From an uncultured Bacilli bacterium (GTDB taxonomy: Bacteria > Bacillota_I > Bacilli_A > RF39 > UBA660), in contig CAKPSO010000005.1 of assembly GCA_934183185.1 (NCBI GenBank), forward strand, positions 890-64,889: a stretch of 64,000 bases of DNA, in the 5' to 3' direction. Under the pieces are notes generated by a model. The model made no database searches, was not told the DNA's origin, and saw only the letters and a program-made list of their open reading frames with translations. The translations under genes were made by a program, and so were the position numbers. Shown here piece after piece: positions 17,419 through 27,345 of the stretch (within the stretch, counting starts at the first letter, position 1; the number at the start of each line of letters is the position of its first letter).

Positions 17419-18189
17419 ATGAAAAAAATGGTGCCTTTTACTAAACAGATTCATTTTAAAACAATGATTGCTGAAGTAACTGATATTGAGGTAACTCATA
17501 ACTTAGAAATTAAAGAAGATAATACGATTGAGGGTGATATATTAGTAGACGGAAGATATAAAATACATGAAGCTAGTCAATTAGAAGAAAAATTCCATTA
17601 TAATTTACCATTTACTATAGAAGTAGACTCTAAATATGATATTTCTAAAGCTAGTATTGCGATTAGTGATTTTTACTTTGAAATTATTAATGAAGAAGAC
17701 TTAAAAATAAACGTTGAATTAGAAATATATGATGTAGATGAGAAAAAAGTAGAAGTTGGTACTAGAGAAGAAATAGAACCAATTCCTATTGAGGTTGATG
17801 AACAACCAAAAAAAATTGAAATACCTAGTATTGATGAGATAGAAGAAGATATTAAAGAAGAAGTAGTTGATACTAATAAGAATAATACTACTTTAGATAG
17901 TGAAAAAATTAACTTTAAAATTACAGATACTAATATAAATACCAATACTTCTACTTCTAATACTACTAATACTAATACTAATACTAATAAAAACTATAAT
18001 ACTATTTTTGATACTATATCTGGTGATGAGACATTCGTTACATACTATGTATATATAGTTAGGGAAACTGATACCATTGAAACTATCTTAGATAAATATC
18101 ATGTTACTAGAGAAGATTTATCACTATATAATAACTTAGATGATATAAAGATTGGTACTAAAGTAATAGTTCCATGTCACAATGAATAA
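17419..18189 (+). CDS. SpoVID-like spore-coat morphogenetic protein with C-terminal LysM
   Basis: N-terminal SpoVID-type beta region, acidic linker, Thr/Asn repeat, and LysM (YVYIVRETDTIETILDKYHVTREDLSLYNNL...IGTKVIVP). Followed by a ysxE-like gene, as in Bacillus. Confidence 0.6.
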   Translation: MKKMVPFTKQIHFKTMIAEVTDIEVTHNLEIKEDNTIEGDILVDGRYKIHEASQLEEKFHYNLPFTIEVDSKYDISKASIAISDFYFEIINEEDLKINVELEIYDVDEKKVEVGTREEIEPIPIEVDEQPKKIEIPSIDEIEEDIKEEVVDTNKNNTTLDSEKINFKITDTNINTNTSTSNTTNTNTNTNKNYNTIFDTISGDETFVTYYVYIVRETDTIETILDKYHVTREDLSLYNNLDDIKIGTKVIVPCHNE

Positions 18190-19072
18190 AATAGATGTAT
18201 TAAATAAATATAGTATAAAGCCATTATACTATCAAAAGAAGAAACATGTAGATATTATTACCTGTAGTAATGGTAGATATGTAATTAAAAAGACTAATAA
18301 TAGTAATATTTATGAATACCTAAGAGTTAGAAATTTTAATAATTTTCCTAATTCTATTACTAATAATACTGATTCTTATGAAATAGTAGATTATATAGAT
18401 GATATAGAAGTACCAATGGAACAAAGAGCTCAAGATTTAATATATTTAACTAGTATTTTACATGCTAAAACTACTTTTTATAAGAATTTAGATACTGATA
18501 CTATTAAAGAAATATATGAAAAGATAGTTAACATGCAGACTGATGTTTATCAGTACTATATGAATATACAAGATATAATAGAAACTGAAGTTTATATGTC
18601 TCCTAGTCATTATTTATTAATACGTAATATTTCACTTTTTTATAAATGTATTAGACTAAGTAAAGAATATATTGATAAGTGGTATGATATTATAAAAGAT
18701 AAAAAAAGATTAAGATATGCTATGACTCATGGTAATTTAGATAGTAGTCATATAATAGAAAATGAAGATATTTATTTAATTAGTTGGGATAAAGCTAAGA
18801 TAGATAATCCAATATACGATTTAAATAATCTTTATCGTAATAACTTTATTAGACTAGATTTAATAGATATGCTTAATATTTATGAATCTAAGTATGAGTT
18901 GAGTCATGATGAAAAGTATTTATTATTTAGTTTGGTTTTGATTCCTAATAGATTAGAAGTTATGGATACTGAATATTTAAATGTAGTAAATGTTAGAAAG
19001 ATAGTTGAATATATGCTTAAAATTAATAATACATTTTATAATCATATTTTACCTAAAACGGAGAGAAATTAA
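18182..19072 (+). CDS. CotS-family spore-coat kinase-fold protein (YsxE-like)
   Basis: THGNLDSSHIIENEDIYLISWDKAKIDNPIYDL (HGD/N...N...D catalytic-loop pattern). Overlaps the spoVID-like stop. Confidence 0.65.
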   Translation: MNKIDVLNKYSIKPLYYQKKKHVDIITCSNGRYVIKKTNNSNIYEYLRVRNFNNFPNSITNNTDSYEIVDYIDDIEVPMEQRAQDLIYLTSILHAKTTFYKNLDTDTIKEIYEKIVNMQTDVYQYYMNIQDIIETEVYMSPSHYLLIRNISLFYKCIRLSKEYIDKWYDIIKDKKRLRYAMTHGNLDSSHIIENEDIYLISWDKAKIDNPIYDLNNLYRNNFIRLDLIDMLNIYESKYELSHDEKYLLFSLVLIPNRLEVMDTEYLNVVNVRKIVEYMLKINNTFYNHILPKTERN

Positions 19073-19082
19073 TCTCTCTGTT

Positions 19083-19301
19083 TTAAAATATAATTCTAAT
19101 AAAGCCAATTATAACGCAAGCCATTAGTAAGAATATTAATATAGCATTTAATCTAGTAGTTATGAAAATAGTAAATATTACTTGCCACATTAATATAATT
19201 AATAATGATAGAAGAATACCCATATACCATAAACTACTTCTTCTTTTTATTTTACACATTTCACATCTACAGAAAAAGCCATGTCTTTTTGATTTAAACA
19301 T
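19083..19301 (-). CDS. small membrane protein, hypothetical
   Basis: CxC..C N-terminus followed by two TM helices. 72 aa. Confidence 0.4.
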   Translation of the reverse strand: MFKSKRHGFFCRCEMCKIKRRSSLWYMGILLSLLIILMWQVIFTIFITTRLNAILIFLLMACVIIGFIRIIF

Positions 19302-19388
19302 AAGATTTCACCTACTATAATATATGCCTGTCAAACTAGTTTGACAATTAATCTTAATTACTTTATAATGTTTTTAGGAAGTGTTACT

Positions 19389-19682
19389 ATGGATATTAAT
19401 TATGATAATAAATCTAATGGAAATAAGTTCTGTTTCGGGGAACTTAGAAGAGAATATTTAAAGAATGATGGTAGTTTAGCTACTGATGTTCATACTAATA
19501 TAGCTTTAGTTAGATTAGATGAGGATAGGTATATTCGTTATTGGGATTATTTAGCTGGTAGGGTTGATAATGTTTTAACTACTAGTCCTAGTATGTTTAA
19601 TACCTGGTATGTGGATAAAAATAGTGTAGTTGATTCTGTTACTTCAGCTATTGAACAGAATGTTAGTAATAGAAAAAGATAA
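19389..19682 (+). CDS. hypothetical protein
   Basis: AGGAAG RBS before ATG 19389. No motif recognised. Confidence 0.4.
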   Translation: MDINYDNKSNGNKFCFGELRREYLKNDGSLATDVHTNIALVRLDEDRYIRYWDYLAGRVDNVLTTSPSMFNTWYVDKNSVVDSVTSAIEQNVSNRKR

Positions 19683-19689
19683 ATAAAAA

Positions 19690-19907
19690 CATAGAAGTCG
19701 AGGTATAAAAGATATTTTTAGTAGAGAGCTTATGGTGGGTGAAAATAAGTAAAAGTGCTTTTATTGGTAGCGATGGAGTTTAATTAGTGAGTTTAGTAGC
19801 TAATTACGGTACTTGCCGTTATAAGAAATTGAGGGTATTCTAATTTAGAATGAATTAAGGTGGTACCGCGGGTTAACTCGTCCTTATATATAGGGAGGAG
19901 TTTTTTT
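19690..19907 (+). promoter_or_regulatory. T-box riboswitch leader (probable Val specifier GUA)
   Basis: AGAGAG bulge plus GGTGGGTGAAA distal loop. T-box AATTAAGGTGGTACCGCG (19853-19870). Terminator ACTCGTCCTT/AGGGAGGAGT plus T7. Specifier loop TTGGTAG (19764-19770). Confidence 0.8.
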
Positions 19908-20651
19908 ATGAATTATTTTAATGTTAGAGAAGAATTTGATAAGTATGTAGATAGTTTTGGTAATAGTGAAATGATCCTTTTGAAAAAGTATCATAGTTAT
20001 GCAGTTAGTGATTTAATGGCAGAACTTGCTTATAGGTTAGAGCTAACTGATGAACAGATAGTGATTGCTAGAATTATTGGTTTACTTCATGATATTGGTA
20101 GATTTGAACAGTATAAGGAATATAAATCTTTTTCTGATAAGAACTTTGATCATGCTAAGATGGGATGCAAATATTTATTTGATGAAGGACATATTCGTGA
20201 TTACTTAGATGATAATAGTTATGATGATATTATTAAGAATGCTATTTGGTATCATAATGTTTTAGAATTACCAGTATTAGATGGAAATGTTTATTTGTTT
20301 AGTAAGATGATATGTGATATGGATAAAGTTGATATCTATAAACAGATGGCTATTCACTTTCATATGGAATTTGATGCTAAAGAAGTTAATGAAAAAGTAT
20401 TAGAAAAGTTTAAAATAGGTAAATTAATAGATATTAATATTGAGAAAAGTAAGAGTGATGCTATTATTACGCAGTTGGCTTTTATATATGATTTTAATTT
20501 TAATGAAAGTTATGATATATTAGTTGATACTGATAACTTTGACTTATATTTGTCAGTAGTTGAAGTTTCAGAGGATAGTGAAAAGTTATGGAAAAAATTA
20601 AGAGAATTATGCTTTGATAAAATTAATAGAGGAGTAGATATAAATGAATGA
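19908..20651 (+). CDS. HD-domain metal-dependent phosphohydrolase
   Basis: H...HDIGR (LLHDIGRFEQ), a downstream DHAKMG and WYHN. First gene after the T-box terminator. Confidence 0.75.
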   Translation: MNYFNVREEFDKYVDSFGNSEMILLKKYHSYAVSDLMAELAYRLELTDEQIVIARIIGLLHDIGRFEQYKEYKSFSDKNFDHAKMGCKYLFDEGHIRDYLDDNSYDDIIKNAIWYHNVLELPVLDGNVYLFSKMICDMDKVDIYKQMAIHFHMEFDAKEVNEKVLEKFKIGKLIDINIEKSKSDAIITQLAFIYDFNFNESYDILVDTDNFDLYLSVVEVSEDSEKLWKKLRELCFDKINRGVDINE

Positions 20652-21087
20652 AAGAGGAACTTTGTGGATAGTGCCAGATGAAAATAAAATTATGCAGCCT
20701 TTATTTAAGGAACAAGTTGGTGATGGTATTAGTCATACTACACACATGATAGAATTTATTAGAAAATATGGTTTAGATTTAGATGTTAAGGAAACTGATT
20801 ACCATGAGGGGCCATGTATGATTGCTGAAGATGGACATTTAGTTATTAAGTCAACAGATGATGTATCTCAGTTAATATTTTATATTCCAGATGTAATTAC
20901 TAATCGTCAGATTGAGTTTGTTTGTGAAAATCAATTTATGTTTTCTAATTATCAATTAATTGGTGGATACTCACTAAGATATTTAGATGGGGAAATAGTG
21001 TGGAAAACATTACATGGTATGAATGAAATTATGCTAGAGATTAATAAAAAAAATATGGCATACAGTGAAAATATAAAGAGGAGGTAG
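20644..21087 (+). CDS. hypothetical protein, tandem paralogue A
   Basis: LWIVPDENKIMQP...AEDGHLVIK...IFYIPDVIT. Paralogous to the next ORF. 8-nt overlap with the HD gene. Confidence 0.55.
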   Translation: MNERGTLWIVPDENKIMQPLFKEQVGDGISHTTHMIEFIRKYGLDLDVKETDYHEGPCMIAEDGHLVIKSTDDVSQLIFYIPDVITNRQIEFVCENQFMFSNYQLIGGYSLRYLDGEIVWKTLHGMNEIMLEINKKNMAYSENIKRR

Positions 21088-21091
21088 TAGT

Positions 21092-21532
21092 ATGGAAATA
21101 ATGAAAAATAAATTATGGATTATAGCTAATGAAAATATGATACAACCTAGTGTATTTACTAAAGATGTATCTTCTACTGATAATTATAGTAATGCTTTAA
21201 GAGAATTTAATAATAGATATCAATTAAATCTTAATATTGATGACTATTTTACTTCAGCTTATTTACTTGCAGAGATGGGACATATGGTAGTTATGAAGAA
21301 TAATATAGATAAACAAGTAATAATATATATTCCAAGGGAAGTAACAGTAGGACAGTTAAATTGGTTTAGAGATAATCAAAGTGAACTTTCTAATACTGCT
21401 ATTACTGCTATGGTAAATGGATATATTTTAAGTGATGGAGTTGATAGTGCTGAACTACATAGTATTAATGAAGTGTTGTTGGCTTTAGATAAAAACAGAA
21501 TTAATGTACATAGTAATTTTATGAGGAAATAA
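21092..21532 (+). CDS. hypothetical protein, tandem paralogue B
   Basis: LWIIANENMIQP...AEMGHMVVMK...IIYIPREVT. GAGGAGG RBS. Confidence 0.55.
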   Translation: MEIMKNKLWIIANENMIQPSVFTKDVSSTDNYSNALREFNNRYQLNLNIDDYFTSAYLLAEMGHMVVMKNNIDKQVIIYIPREVTVGQLNWFRDNQSELSNTAITAMVNGYILSDGVDSAELHSINEVLLALDKNRINVHSNFMRK

Positions 21533-21533
21533 T

Positions 21534-21665
21534 ATGTTAGATAAAAAATATGATCATAAGAGTGTTGAAGAAAATAAGTATGATTTTTGGAAAGATAATG
21601 GTTTTTTTGAAGCAGGAAAAGATAAGAGCAAGGTACCTTTTTGTGTAGTAATACCACTTCTTTAA
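21534..21665 (+). pseudogene. valS 5' fragment (43 codons), duplicate of 23778-23899
   Basis: 122 nt almost identical to the true valS start, differing in a short cluster at codons 10-11 (KSVEE vs KIVEE). Diverges after ...GTAGTAATACC and stops at TAA 21663. Confidence 0.85.
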
Positions 21666-21690
21666 ATAAAAAATTATAGGAGGTGATTTA

Positions 21691-23418
21691 ATGGAGAGAG
21701 ATTTAAAATTAATAAAGGAAAAGTATGGCGAAAAAATGATGCACTATTGTAGATCAGAATTATCAACTATTTTAGAAAATGATGGGTTATTACCAAGTTT
21801 ACTTTTAGAACATTTTAATGAAAGTCATATGTTATATGATGATATTGAAAAAGAGGGTAAACTAGAAGAATTTAAAAACTATATATATAGTTTAATTGAT
21901 GTTGAAAATAATAATGAAAAATTAGAAAATAGAACGCCAGAAGAATTATTAAGTAAAGCTGGTTATAATTTTTATGAATGTAAAACAGAGGAAGATATTC
22001 AATCATTTAAAAAATATTATTTTAAAGGTGAAGAACTATGTACATTTAAAGGTGGAAGATTAGAAAAATGTCATGTATTTTTTGCTGTTAAAAAGAATGT
22101 AGATGAAATAAAAAGAGAAAATTTTTCTAAACCTAAGAGACAAGATGAATATGGAACATCTGTTATAAGTATTCAGTTTACAAAAGGAAGTTGTGCTTTA
22201 TCAATTAAGAATAGATATAATCATACAGTAAATAATCCAGATGCAACTTTTTCAAATAATCTAGATAATATAATAGAAGGATTAGCAAAAAGTTTTGAAA
22301 ATCAATATGGGTTTGTTCAAGAAAATAATAGTGATTTTGAATTAAAAAATTATGTTAATGTTAAAGGAAAATATTATAAATATAATTATGAAATTGATAA
22401 TGTTTATTATTGCTTAGATAATATTATAATAGATAATTTTGATGTAAAAAAATATGATGATGAGAGATACATTGTATTCGATTATTTTGTACTTGATTTA
22501 AAAGAAAAGAAAATTTTAACAGAAGTGGAAGATGATTCATTTATAGATGGAATAGTAGATATAGATAAAATAAATATTGTAAAGTTAGAAAATGGAAAAG
22601 CAATTCATTTAATCCCTATAAATGGGGAAGAAATTATAATTGAATTAGATAAACAAAATAGGATTGTAAAATATAAAAATAATAATATTAAACGATGCGA
22701 TGATGATTTTTTGTATTTCAATGAGTCATTACAAGAATTAAATTTGCCAAACCTAGAACGATGTGGTGATAATTTTATATATTATAATAAATCATTACAG
22801 GAATTAAATTTACCAAGCCTAGAACGATGTGGAGATAGTTTTTTGATTTCTAATGAATCATTACAGGAATTAAATTTACCAAGCCTAGAACGATGTGAAG
22901 ATAGTTTTTTGCTTTCTAATGAATCATTACAAGAATTAAATTTGCCAAACTTAAAACAATGTGGAGATGGTTTTTTGTTTAGCAATCAATCACTACAAGA
23001 ATTAAATTTACCAAACCTAGAACGGTGTGGTAATAATTTTATATATTATAATGAATCATTACAGGAATTAAATTTACCAAACTTAAAACAATGTAGAGAT
23101 GGTTTTTTGTCTAAAAATAACTCATTACAAGAATTAAATTTGCCAAACCTAGAACGATGTGGTAATAATTTTATATATTATAATGAATCATTACAGGAAT
23201 TAAATTTACAAAACCTAGAACAATGTGGAGATAGTTTTTTGTCTAAAAATAACTCATTACAGGAATTAAATTTACCAAACTTAGAACAATGTGGAGATAA
23301 GTTTTTATATTATAATCGTTCATTACAAGAATTAAATTTACCAAGCCTAGAACGATGTGAAAATAGTTTTTTGCTTAGCAATCAATCACTACAAGAATTA
23401 AATTTGCCAAAAAAATAA
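21691..23418 (+). CDS. leucine-rich-repeat protein (about 330-aa unknown N-domain + 10.5 x 22-aa LRR), no signal peptide
   Basis: Repeats SLQELNLPNLERCGDNFIYYNx. GGAGG RBS. Confidence 0.75.
   Translation: MERDLKLIKEKYGEKMMHYCRSELSTILENDGLLPSLLLEHFNESHMLYDDIEKEGKLEEFKNYIYSLIDVENNNEKLENRTPEELLSKAGYNFYECKTEEDIQSFKKYYFKGEELCTFKGGRLEKCHVFFAVKKNVDEIKRENFSKPKRQDEYGTSVISIQFTKGSCALSIKNRYNHTVNNPDATFSNNLDNIIEGLAKSFENQYGFVQENNSDFELKNYVNVKGKYYKYNYEIDNVYYCLDNIIIDNFDVKKYDDERYIVFDYFVLDLKEKKILTEVEDDSFIDGIVDIDKINIVKLENGKAIHLIPINGEEIIIELDKQNRIVKYKNNNIKRCDDDFLYFNESLQELNLPNLERCGDNFIYYNKSLQELNLPSLERCGDSFLISNESLQELNLPSLERCEDSFLLSNESLQELNLPNLKQCGDGFLFSNQSLQELNLPNLERCGNNFIYYNESLQELNLPNLKQCRDGFLSKNNSLQELNLPNLERCGNNFIYYNESLQELNLQNLEQCGDSFLSKNNSLQELNLPNLEQCGDKFLYYNRSLQELNLPSLERCENSFLLSNQSLQELNLPKK
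22691..23412 (+). repeat. 66-bp tandem coding repeat (LRR units)
   Basis: About 11 in-frame units with high nucleotide identity. Confidence 0.9.
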
Positions 23419-23473
23419 AAACTAATTTGCTATTTAATATATTAAAACAAGGCAAAAAAAGGTGAGAATAATA

Positions 23474-23755
23474 ATGAAAAAAGTAACTGTAAAAGATAAA
23501 GAAGACTATATCTACTATTTAATAGATGGTAACATGGAGTATAAATTAAAAATAGAATTCTATGATTTAAATATTTTACCTAAAAAAGGAGATAATCTTT
23601 ATCTAGATGAAAAACTTTTAAAAGAAAAAATATTGCTATCATTTGGTTTAATTAATAATACTGATGGAAAAGATATCAATTTATTAAAGGAAGATGAAAT
23701 AATAATTTTAGATAATGGTAAAGAAAAAATTTATTTAAAAAGATACTATGGTTAG
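23474..23755 (+). CDS. hypothetical small protein
   Basis: AGGTGA RBS. 93 aa. No motif. Confidence 0.45.
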   Translation: MKKVTVKDKEDYIYYLIDGNMEYKLKIEFYDLNILPKKGDNLYLDEKLLKEKILLSFGLINNTDGKDINLLKEDEIIILDNGKEKIYLKRYYG

Positions 23756-23777
23756 TTAAATATAAAGGAGAATAAAT

Positions 23778-26312
23778 ATGTTAGATAAAAAATATGATCA
23801 TAAGATAGTAGAAGAAAATAAGTATGATTTTTGGAAAGATAATGGTTTTTTTGAAGCAGGAAAAGATAAGAGCAAGGTACCTTTTTGTGTAGTAATACCT
23901 CCTCCTAATGTAACTGGTAGGCTTCATTTAGGACATGCTTGGGATACTACTTTACAGGATATAATGATTCGTTATAAAAGAATGGATGGTTATGATACTT
24001 TATGGTTACCAGGAATGGATCATGCCGGTATAGCTACTCAAGCTAAAGTTGATAAGAAATTAAAAGAACAGGGTATTAAGCCTCGTGAAATGGATAGAGA
24101 AGAGTGGTTGAAAGTAGCTTGGGATTGGAAAAGAGAGTATGCTGAAAACATTCATGAGCAGTGGAAAACATTGGGATTATCACTTGATTATTCTAGAGAA
24201 AGATTTACTCTTGATGATGGCTTATCTAAAGCAGTAAGACGTGTGTTTGTTGACTTATATAATGAAGGCTTAATCTATAGAGGAGAAAGAATTATTAACT
24301 GGGATCCAGTTCAAATGACTGCTTTATCTAATGAAGAAGTTATTTATAAGGATGATGAAGGAGCTTTTTATCATTTAAAATATTATTTAGAAGATAAGAG
24401 TATGTACCTTGATGTTGCAACTACTCGTCCTGAAACTTTGTTTGGTGATACGGCAGTTGCGGTTAATCCTAGTGATGAAAGATATAAAGATTTGATAGGT
24501 AAGAAGGTAATTTTACCAGTAGTTAATAAATTAATTCCAATAGTTGGTGACATCCATGCTGATCCAGAATTTGGTACAGGTGTGGTTAAGATAACTCCAG
24601 CTCATGATCCTAACGATTTTGAAGTTGGAAATCGTCATAATTTGGAAAGAATAGTAGTAATGAATCCTGATGCTACTATGAATGAAAATGCAGGTAAATA
24701 CTGTGGCTTAACTCGTGAAGAGTGTAGAGAAAAGTTACTAGAAGACTTGAAAAAAGAAGATTTACTTATTTCTATAGAACCAATGGTACATAGTGTTGGG
24801 CATAGTGAAAGAAGTGATGCGGTAGTAGAACCATATTTATCTAAACAGTGGTTTGTTAAAATGAGGCCACTAGCTGATAGAGTACTTGAAAATCAGAGAA
24901 ATAAAGATACTAAGGTAAACTTCGTTCCTGAACGTTATGAAAAAACAATGAATCATTGGATGGAAATAACTTATGATTGGTGTATTTCACGTCAATTATG
25001 GTGGGGGCATAGAATACCGGCTTGGTATAAAGATGATCAAGTATATGTTGGAATGGAATCCCCTACTGAGGAAGGATGGGTACAAGATAATGATGTCTTG
25101 GATACATGGTTTAGTAGTGCTTTATGGCCATTTAGTACTTTGGGTTGGCCAGAGGAAACAGAAGATTTAAAGAGATACTATCCTAATAACTGCTTAGTAA
25201 CTGGATATGATATTATACCATTCTGGGTAAATCGTATGACTTTTCAGGGACTTCATTTTACTAACTCTAGGCCATTTAATGATTGCCTAATTCATGGGCT
25301 TATTCGTGATAAGATTGGTAGAAAAATGTCTAAATCCTTAGGTAATGGAGTAGATCCTATGGATGTAGTTAATGAATATGGGGCTGATTCATTACGTTTC
25401 TTCTTAACTACTAATAGTGCTCCTGGTATGGATTTAAGATATGATGAAGAAAAAGTAAAATCTACTTGGAATTTCATCAATAAATTATGGAATGCATCAC
25501 GATATGTACTTATGAATATGGAAGAATTTAAAGGTGAAGATTATACGCTAGATAACTTATCTTTAAGTGATAAATGGATATTAGAAAAATTAAATAAACT
25601 TATAGCTAGTATTAGAAGTAGTATGGATAAATATGAATATCATAATGTTGGTAATGAACTTTATACCTTTATTTGGGAAGATTTCTGTGATTGGTATATT
25701 GAACTTTCTAAAGTAAATATGAATAATACTACTAAGAGTGTATTATTAAAGGTATTAACTGCTATTTTAAAAATGCTTCATCCATTCATGCCATATGTAA
25801 CTGAAGAAATATATCAGATGTTACCTATTAAAGAGGCTAAATCAATAATGATTAGTTCTTATCCAGTAGTAGAAAATATTGACTATAGCAGTGATAGGGA
25901 ACTTATGGATAAAATTATTTTAGATATAGTAGCTATTCGTAATTTAAAGCAATCTAATAATATAACTAAGGATGCTAAAATTATGATTAATGTAGATGAT
26001 GCTTTAAAAGATATTTATTATTCTCAATTGAAAATAAAAGAAGATAATATAATTACAGAAGAGGTTAGTGATTTCTTAAGTAATAATTATCAGTCTAAAA
26101 ATATTAATATTACCTACTATTATGAGGGAAGTAGTGAAGATTCATCTAAAAAACAAGAGGAGATAGAAAAGTTAAAATCTTCTATAGCTAGGCGTACTCA
26201 GTTATTAGCTAATAGTAATTATGTTAATAAAGCTCCAGCTAATATAGTAGAAATGGATAGAAAAAAACTAGCTGAAGAGAAAGAAAGATTATCTTTATTG
26301 GAAAATAATTAA
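23778..26312 (+). CDS. valS: valine--tRNA ligase
   Basis: HIGH ([15 protein letters not shown]), KMSKS (KMSKSLGN), and a C-terminal coiled coil. Confidence 0.95.
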
Positions 26313-26354
26313 TTATAGATATTAAAATAAAATATGATAATTCTTAAAATAAAT

Positions 26355-26386
26355 AGCTTAAAGTAGTACTTTAGGTTATTTTTTTA
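26355..26386 (+). terminator. intrinsic terminator after valS
   Basis: About 9-bp stem around AAAGTAGTACTTT, then T7. Confidence 0.55.
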
Positions 26387-26490
26387 ACTTTTTTAAAACT
26401 TTATGCAGTCATCTTCCAACTTTCTTATAATAATTATATTAGGGTGTATCATTGATACACTTAAATATTTAAGGAAAGGGGGAAAATATA

Positions 26491-27345
26491 GTGATATCAC
26501 TTATTGAAAAAGAAACTCTAGTAAATGATAACTTTGTATCACTGTTATCTGATACAACATTTAAGTATCTATATAAAAACATAGATACTAGAAGCTGGTT
26601 ACAAACTATTATTAAAGAAGTATTTCTATTAGATATTACAGATTATCAATTAACAGATAATGAATCAAATACTGGTAATAAAGTAAAAGATTATCGAATG
26701 GATTTAAAACTAGTAAATGGAAAGAATACTATAATAATAGAAATGAATAAAGAGTATTATGAATTTATAGATTCAAAGAACTACCAATACTTGTACCGTG
26801 AAGCTGGAAGTTTATATGATACAGGAGAAGATTATCAAGATAGAAAGACTAAACTAATTTCATTCAATAACTATAGAAATAAGAAGATACCATCATTAAA
26901 GATGGGAAGTTATGTATTTATAGATCCAAAAACTAAATTAAGAATAGAAGATATAGAAAGTTATGAGATTTATTTACCTAATTATAAGAAAGTATGTTAT
27001 GATAGTAGTGAATTAGAAGTTAGCTTAAGTTTATTTAGTGCAGATAGTTTTGATAAGATGAGGAAGCTAACTAATAATCCAAGAGATATAAAGATTATAG
27101 AAGAATTGGAGAGATTAGCTATGGATGAAGAATTCAAATTACATTATAACGCTGAAGCGGTCAAAAGAAAGACAGAGAATTCTATCAAGAAAGAATCTTA
27201 TCGACATGGACTAGAAGATGGTTCTAAGCAAGAAAAATTAGAGATAGCTCAAGCTATGCTAAATGAAAGGTTGGATATGCAGCTTATTTCTAGAACTACC
27301 GGTTTATCAGTAGAAGAGATAGAAAAATTTTGCCAATCATTATAA
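26491..27345 (+). CDS. Rpn-family / PD-(D/E)XK nuclease-family putative transposase
   Basis: DYRMDLKLV...IIIEMNKE (D...D...E.K-like core). C-terminal GLSVEEIEKF helix typical of the family. GTG start. Confidence 0.6.
   Translation: MISLIEKETLVNDNFVSLLSDTTFKYLYKNIDTRSWLQTIIKEVFLLDITDYQLTDNESNTGNKVKDYRMDLKLVNGKNTIIIEMNKEYYEFIDSKNYQYLYREAGSLYDTGEDYQDRKTKLISFNNYRNKKIPSLKMGSYVFIDPKTKLRIEDIESYEIYLPNYKKVCYDSSELEVSLSLFSADSFDKMRKLTNNPRDIKIIEELERLAMDEEFKLHYNAEAVKRKTENSIKKESYRHGLEDGSKQEKLEIAQAMLNERLDMQLISRTTGLSVEEIEKFCQSL

Follow-up and report, generated by a model that had tools for sequence, protein, structure and literature searches.

The stretch of DNA analysed here (64,000 nucleotides (nt), hereafter "the window") lies on contig 5 (CAKPSO010000005.1) of a 54-contig, 1.29-Mb metagenome-assembled genome of an uncultured gut Bacilli bacterium (GCA_934183185.1). 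It holds a run of genes, all on the forward (+) strand, that ends in valS, the gene of valyl-tRNA synthetase (ValRS), and the 5′ end of this valS is present twice, on either side of a small two-gene module. The run is headed by a T-box leader (19683–19888; Rfam RF00230, 119 bits), whose specifier, as read from the alignment, is GUA (Val). The leader is followed by an HD hydrolase gene (19908–20651; open reading frame (ORF) with Pfam HD) and two further ORFs, paralogue A (20644–21087) and paralogue B (21092–21532). One nucleotide past the stop codon of B begins the displaced copy of the valS 5′ end (21534–21657), delimited by alignment to the valS of the window and to the allele of relatives; the ORF that it opens ends at 21665. 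Directly downstream are an illegitimate joint and the leader of a leucine-rich repeat (LRR) gene (21658–21690, TTCTTTAAAT...AAATTATAGGAGGTGATTTA), as defined by comparison with other lineages. The module itself comprises the LRR gene (21691–23418; 575 amino acids (aa), Pfam LRR_5/BspA-type), orf93 (23474–23755, ATG at 23474; 93 aa) and a 22-nt spacer, TTAAATATAAAGGAGAATAAAT (23756–23777). The intact valS follows (23778–26312; 844 aa, full Pfam class-I architecture), and its first 122 nt form the right repeat. In what follows, sp1 designates the species of the window, sp2 and sp4 other module-bearing lineages, G-numbers the representative genomes of the genus and L-numbers the loci or contigs that were read. 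The comparison that defined the joint and leader was made with sp2 and sp4, and the spacer is identical or differs by one base in sp1 to sp4.

The direct repeats, at 21534–21655 and 23778–23899, are 122 nt long and identical at 119 positions. All mismatches fall at nt 29, 30 and 33 of valS, with AGT GTT on the left and ATA GTA on the right; on a simple base-composition estimate about 7e-48 such repeat pairs would be expected in the window by chance. The left copy is an ORF of 43 codons with its TAA stop at 21663–21665, and the right copy is the start of the full-length gene, with AAAGGAG located 8 nt upstream of the ATG, inside the spacer, so that the module supplies the Shine-Dalgarno sequence of valS. 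The original prediction, made from the letters of the window alone, had described near-identical copies with a short cluster of differences, a first copy stopping after 43 codons, an LRR gene and a 93-aa ORF in between, and a valS placed behind this cassette with a new ribosome-binding site, and alignment, ORF and Pfam reading confirmed each of these points. When the left copy is compared with the allele of relatives (CCA CC.), the homology is 2 nt longer and reaches nt 124 of valS, and for this reason the joint is placed where AATACCAC meets TTCTTTAA. In module-free species of the genus the native junction consists of the end of an A/B-like gene, a GGAGG-type Shine-Dalgarno sequence and the ATG. 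Because the junction between B and the left copy resembles it (G017, G007), the left copy occupies the original position of valS. No inverted repeats were found at the module borders. valS is single-copy in the genome of the window; a third match to its 5′ piece, on contig 44 (39 nt, 85%), was judged chance-like.

The arrangement is reproducible within the species. The order HD, A, B, 43-codon ORF, LRR, orf93, valS, together with the copy-specific differences, was found in every conspecific contig reaching the locus, and these contigs span several samples and pipelines (Hadza SPAdes-style NODE contigs, k141-named contigs and MERR22 scaffolds). One of them is 132 kb long with a coverage of about 70x. 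The block from HD through valS (~6.4 kb, 19908–26312) is 99.6–100% identical among conspecific contigs, and the flanks (18182–19907 and 26313–27345) are 97–99% identical. Such a diversity trough, centred on the module, is consistent with a recent spread of one haplotype by recombination. A private and recent event in one strain does not agree with this distribution, as the structure occurs in all conspecific contigs that reach the locus, and a second species has the joint too, next to a decayed remnant. In a scan of JGI metagenomes the left-copy allele gave 0 matches and the spacer was found in 3 contigs.

Relatives provided the empty site. In all 14 same-genus species that were read at the valS locus, HD is followed by no or one A/B-like gene and then by valS, without the module or a second valS start, and none of the other 28 representative genomes of the genus has orf93. 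The comparison that had been suggested for checking the prediction was thus carried out, and these 14 module-free loci bear out that the module is an insertion. The number of A/B-like genes between HD and valS is 0, 1 or 2 across the genus (window 20644–21532, loci L024–L037), and the interval between HD and valS is, judging by the sequences compared, a variable islet. Within one species, A/B-like alleles may be only 82% identical. At one locus (L037, G010:C11, 1591–4017) an intact 808-aa ORF occupies the slot of the module, between an A-like gene and the canonical valS; it is ~28% identical to ValRS over roughly the first 730 residues, and it may represent a second, very divergent class-I synthetase-like gene in a T-box operon.

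Other lineages show further states of the locus. Contigs of sp2, from Hadza and other cohorts (L039, L042–44, L074–77, L097–101 and L102), carry LRR, orf93 and valS in this order, with a joint (AATACCAC followed by TTCTTTA) and a leader identical to those of sp1. Their valS remnant is reduced to ~28 nt, 24 of which are identical to their own valS, and it is fused past the stop of the B-like gene, starting at a 10-nt microhomology, GAAAAGATAA, that is common to the B-like 3′ end and to nt 81–92 of valS. The sp2 contigs are conspecific with G007, which has 96.5% nt identity in HD and 96–99% in valS to L039, L042 and L043, and their valS sequences intermingle in the tree. In G007 itself the B-like gene is directly followed by valS, without the module. 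Since G007 is module-free while conspecific sp2 contigs carry the module, the species is polymorphic for it. Within this species the module was probably moved by ordinary double crossover. In another contig (L046) orf93 precedes a valS that is about 95% identical to that of the module-free G013. A fifth lineage (L072/73), whose orf93 is 78% identical, has LRR, orf93 and valS in the same order too. Two of the contigs from the metagenome scan for the spacer, L103 (CDZY01028215.1) and L104 (OGWY01004239.1; 620–3220), are sp2-like through orf93 and the first 0.8 kb and 1.36 kb of valS, respectively, and unrelated beyond. The ValRS encoded by L104 is an intact mosaic of 867 aa whose break lies close to a conserved motif. 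These two contigs could reflect either chimeric assembly or a genuine crossover, anchored in valS, in a distant recipient, and they were not used as evidence.

In sp4, which includes the GTDB representative CAKPFM01 and whose ValRS is 71% identical to that of the window, the order is ABC transporter, T-box, HD, a 165-aa gene, LRR, orf93 and valS, and no valS fragment is present. The LRR leader motif TTTAAAT..AAATTAT..GG.GGT.ATT.AATGG is common to sp4 and the window, and the spacer between orf93 and valS is identical. The TAA within TTTAAAT is the stop codon of the 165-aa gene of sp4 and corresponds to the TAA at 21663–21665 of the window; because of this, CTTCTTTAA, which follows nt 124 of valS in the window, is best read as the tail of the upstream gene of a donor. 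The LRR-orf93-valS order of sp4, free of any remnant, is likely the source arrangement.

Divergence along the locus is very uneven. Between sp1 and sp2, dS is 0.11–0.21 in the LRR N-domain and 0–0.04 in orf93, vs 0.94–0.97 in valS and about 1.2 in HD. Between sp1 and sp4 the values are 0.31, 0.21 and 1.14 for the LRR N-domain, orf93 and valS, with HD saturated, and identity falls sharply at the valS start. The identity of valS to that of the window decreases along the gene (about 96/87/82%), in the module-free G007, G013 and G017 just as in sp2, and this shared gradient implies that valS diverged vertically and that the module is much younger. When the module tree is rooted with sp4, the module of sp1 falls within the diversity of sp2 (98/100 support). 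The valS tree is incongruent with it and places sp1 outside (G017,(G013,(G007,sp2))). Taken as a comparison of sequences, this indicates that the module moved horizontally between several species of uncultured gut Bacilli.

The two copies of the valS 5′ end look like two natural alleles rather than one decayed copy. The three differences between them all lie within 5 nt, with a chance of about 0.0024 for independent changes, and they fall on the codon that is most variable among species. The right copy shares its allele at nt 29–33 with every other module carrier, whereas the left copy is unique there; nt 123 is A in the left copy, as in the relatives, and a private T in the right one. The two positions together would fit the reciprocal hybrid pattern that a single crossover predicts, with no sampled donor matching nt 34–122.

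On this basis, we consider it somewhat probable that the repeat is the scar of an insertion by the homologous recombination of the cell itself, independent of any dedicated recombinase and following a Campbell-type circular route. The donor fragment would have come from a relative in which LRR and orf93 natively precede valS, and would have comprised the last bases of the upstream gene, LRR, orf93, the 22-nt spacer and the first ~124 nt of valS. This fragment would have closed on itself and then undergone one crossover with the resident valS (Campbell-type or "ends-in"). A single crossover would leave the module between a displaced, truncated 5′ copy abutting B and an intact valS that uses the spacer and Shine-Dalgarno sequence of the module. 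The joint would have arisen once, and the module with its joint would later have passed among at least three species-level lineages; in sp1 it would have spread on the ~6.4-kb haplotype from HD to valS, the one that all sampled contigs have. We infer the circular intermediate, the donor and the direction of transfer from the final structure. In Escherichia coli, 56 of 60 events that had been presumed illegitimate turned out to be single crossovers of DNA that had re-circularised, and the 14 sequenced events carried duplications of 109–950 bp of the homologous locus (PMC3240628). The Campbell-type integration put forward in the original prediction is retained as far as the repeats, the truncated copy, the intact gene and the empty sites in relatives are concerned. 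The "element" that it was thought to carry is not: the source looks like a chromosomal fragment of a relative and not an autonomous element, considering that LRR-orf93-valS of sp4 shares the leader and spacer but lacks a duplicate.

Several observations weigh against such a single insertion of a circle. The haplotypes of the G007 species differ across the whole interval from HD to valS (A-like gene present or absent, B-like gene 82% identical) and do not describe a simple insertion. Neither a circle nor the product of a precise excision was seen, and the 21 contigs that encode the exact B protein and the 8 that encode the exact ValRS included no conspecific empty site. Moreover, the valS of sp2 differs from that of sp1 at nt 45, 72 and 114, in some contigs elsewhere too, and the two sp1 copies are identical to each other across nt 34–122. 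Since the sp2 alleles mismatch where the sp1 copies agree, either the direct donor is unsampled or gene conversion homogenised the copies. The swept haplotype could also have been imported whole from a sister lineage, in which case the sweep would not bound the age of the duplication. Finally, the same final structure can be reached without a circle, and sequence alone does not separate the two routes.

That second route is the homology-facilitated illegitimate recombination of a linear fragment, for example one taken up by natural transformation. The right end of the fragment would pair with the resident valS beyond nt 124, its heterologous left end would be joined at nt 124, and LRR-orf93-valS(1–124) would be inserted as a loop. 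A mechanism of this kind has been proposed for arrays of displaced fragments in type VI secretion system (T6SS) and Rhs loci (PMC5361080). The remnant of sp2, starting as it does at a 10-nt microhomology, is the expected trace of a second such event or of a microhomology deletion. At the joint of the window there are at most 2–4 nt of possible microhomology (CCAC). However, if sp1 was the first recipient, the whole left copy should be the resident allele, and at nt 123 it is the A of the relatives that stands there while the functional copy has T. The prevalence of circles among the presumed illegitimate events in E. coli (PMC3240628) also speaks for the Campbell-type route, and we regard the linear route as unlikely, although it deserves consideration.

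An origin in situ was considered as well, in which a genome that already had LRR-orf93-valS was rearranged by unequal sister-chromatid exchange or replication slippage, followed by deletions; transformation-induced merodiploidy would be a related route. The 97.5% identity of the copies agrees with this, and transformation reportedly generates tandem duplications in Streptococcus pneumoniae. Nonetheless, several steps would be required, and a tandem duplication would duplicate the module too. In addition, the left copy sits in a native B/valS junction that is also present in module-free relatives, and the three differences, grouped at a codon that varies naturally, resemble a second allele. An origin in situ is thus improbable.

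Just as improbable, in our judgement, is a site-specific or homing-type module, in which the LRR N-domain, orf93 or a host protein would cut or recombine DNA at the 5′ end of valS. This would explain the sharp drop of identity at the valS start between sp1 and sp4, and also the constant position of the module: its close copies lie directly ahead of valS in five lineages, and close homologues of orf93 (78–100% identity) are directly upstream of valS in every context examined. The two proteins themselves argue otherwise, as neither matched any family or fold of nucleases, recombinases or transposases (Pfam; AF2 models and Foldseek against PDB), and orf93 contains no His or Cys. The LRR protein consists of a 333-aa N-domain and about ten 22-aa LRR_5 repeats (66-nt repeats in the DNA). 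Its N-domain is blank in Pfam too, and its AF2 model (pLDDT 79.6) gave no PDB fold match at E<=0.001 in Foldseek. The AF2 model of orf93 (pLDDT 83.5) is a small all-beta protein with only weak, OB-fold-like PDB matches. Distant LRR/orf93-like pairs (30–44% identity), known from 23 of the 214 genera sampled in the family, are a further point against homing: valS is absent from the 1.8–3.3 kb of sequence read at each of the 9 such loci examined in other genera (L083–L091).

Other features of the two genes may be mentioned here. The length of the LRR protein varies from 442 to 663 aa across contigs (window and loci L038–L101), mostly by multiples of 22 aa, so the number of repeats is either polymorphic or collapsed by the assemblers. 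Some sp4 contigs have the gene broken into two ORFs. Its N-domain family comprises >4,000 protein clusters, and an exact look-up of the LRR protein of the window found it not on record. Paralogous LRR genes in G013 and G004 (58–60% identity) have no flanking repeats. At all nine distant loci the LRR and orf93-like genes adjoin each other, in two of them with the orf93-like gene first, and this adjacency suggests that the pair functions as a unit. The module showed no toxin or immunity signature, and the ten ORFs scanned by Pfam across 18182–27345 contained no recombinase family; attC sites were not modelled.

The remaining explanations can be treated briefly. An ancient vertical insertion in a common ancestor, with many precise losses and a low divergence kept by selection, would account for the patchy distribution, and precise loss through direct repeats is easy; it was rejected as very improbable, given that the dS of the module is 5 to >20 times below that of valS and HD and that the module tree conflicts with the valS tree. 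Transposition was rejected too, as had been predicted, for there are no terminal inverted repeats, the 122-nt repeat is far longer than a target-site duplication would be and the 2.1 kb encode neither a transposase nor an integrase. An assembly artefact, by looping through the repeat or by mixing of strains, comes to mind with a 54-contig metagenome-assembled genome and with Logan contigs that break at the repeat, and has a negligible chance of being correct, because the same order and the same copy-specific differences recur across samples and assembly pipelines, including the 132-kb contig.

The Campbell-type route invites a more far-reaching idea, which we put forward tentatively and as a possibility rather than an expectation. 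The module together with its valS 5′ piece might be a self-sufficient mobile unit that carries its own "homology arm" and uses only the RecA of the host. A circle would form by recombination between the valS copies or by annealing of a fragment that was taken up, and would insert at the valS of any relative with a similar valS start. If this is true, such a module would spread between species, sweep within them and stay parked in the operon of an essential gene, and once the left repeat was lost, as in sp2, it would be locked in place.

The insertion had also been expected to uncouple valS from its T-box operon, an expectation that the sequences do not bear out. No terminator-like sites were found on the + strand between 19900 and 23778, that is, past the terminator of the T-box itself and up to valS, and promoter-like matches inside the module are no commoner than in shuffled sequence. 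Wherever the region was read (five loci in four lineages: sp2, sp4, G013 and G017), the sole T-box precedes HD, with or without the module. As there is no terminator before valS and the T-box stands only before HD in either state, the claim of uncoupling is unsupported. valS most probably remains the last gene of a T-box(Val)-controlled operon, co-transcription being inferred from this layout. A perfect sigma-70 consensus (TTGACA, 17 nt, TATAAT) is present at 19341–19369, ~315 nt upstream of the T-box, with a 97-aa ORF behind it; transcription of the leader may begin a long way ahead of the T-box.

Campbell-type integration of non-replicating circular DNA, as known from suicide vectors and with a natural counterpart in PMC3240628, has the same hallmarks as the locus described here: target repeats flank the insert, one copy is truncated where the homology ends, the essential gene is re-formed intact and no dedicated recombinase takes part. 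The repeat of 122–124 nt also lies within the reported range of 109–950 bp (PMC3240628). Unlike a suicide vector, however, the insert is not a plasmid but a natural pair of chromosomal genes that came from a related species, and its circular form is deduced; and unlike the laboratory case, it has since passed between species, in one of which every sampled member carries it. Homology-facilitated illegitimate recombination (de Vries & Wackernagel 2002; Prudhomme et al. 2002, as cited in PMC5361080) likewise imports heterologous genes through one conserved anchor, which would be valS here, and one illegitimate joint. According to these papers, it should delete recipient DNA (PMC3240628) or replace it (PMC5361080), whereas at this locus 124 nt of the anchor are duplicated. 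The displaced-fragment arrays of Rhs, CDI and T6SS loci (PMC5361080) resemble it in that a module anchored in a conserved gene leaves an orphan fragment and is exchanged between strains or species; there, the 3′ tips of toxin genes are displaced downstream, and here it is the 5′ end of a housekeeping aminoacyl-tRNA synthetase gene that is displaced upstream. With integron cassettes, insertion sequences and integrase islands the module has in common that it is a small accessory unit at a fixed site, present or absent between relatives. Unlike them, it has no integrase or transposase, in itself or in its immediate neighbours, no terminal inverted repeat and no short target duplication, and its site is not a tRNA gene.

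The recombination outcome as such is known from laboratory genetics. What this locus adds is a natural history across species and a series of states, and its conceptual novelty is moderate. It offers a clean natural example of accessory genes that pass between species without recognisable mobile-element machinery at the locus, with a conserved essential gene serving as the landing pad and a scar that records the insertion. The states form a dated series, from the source arrangement through a fresh insertion with an intact repeat and a decayed remnant to the empty site, and the diversity trough in sp1 is consistent with a gene-specific sweep in an uncultured lineage of the human gut. Moreover, the locus draws attention to a very large family of LRR/orf93 gene pairs, one branch of which rides in a tRNA-sensing operon.

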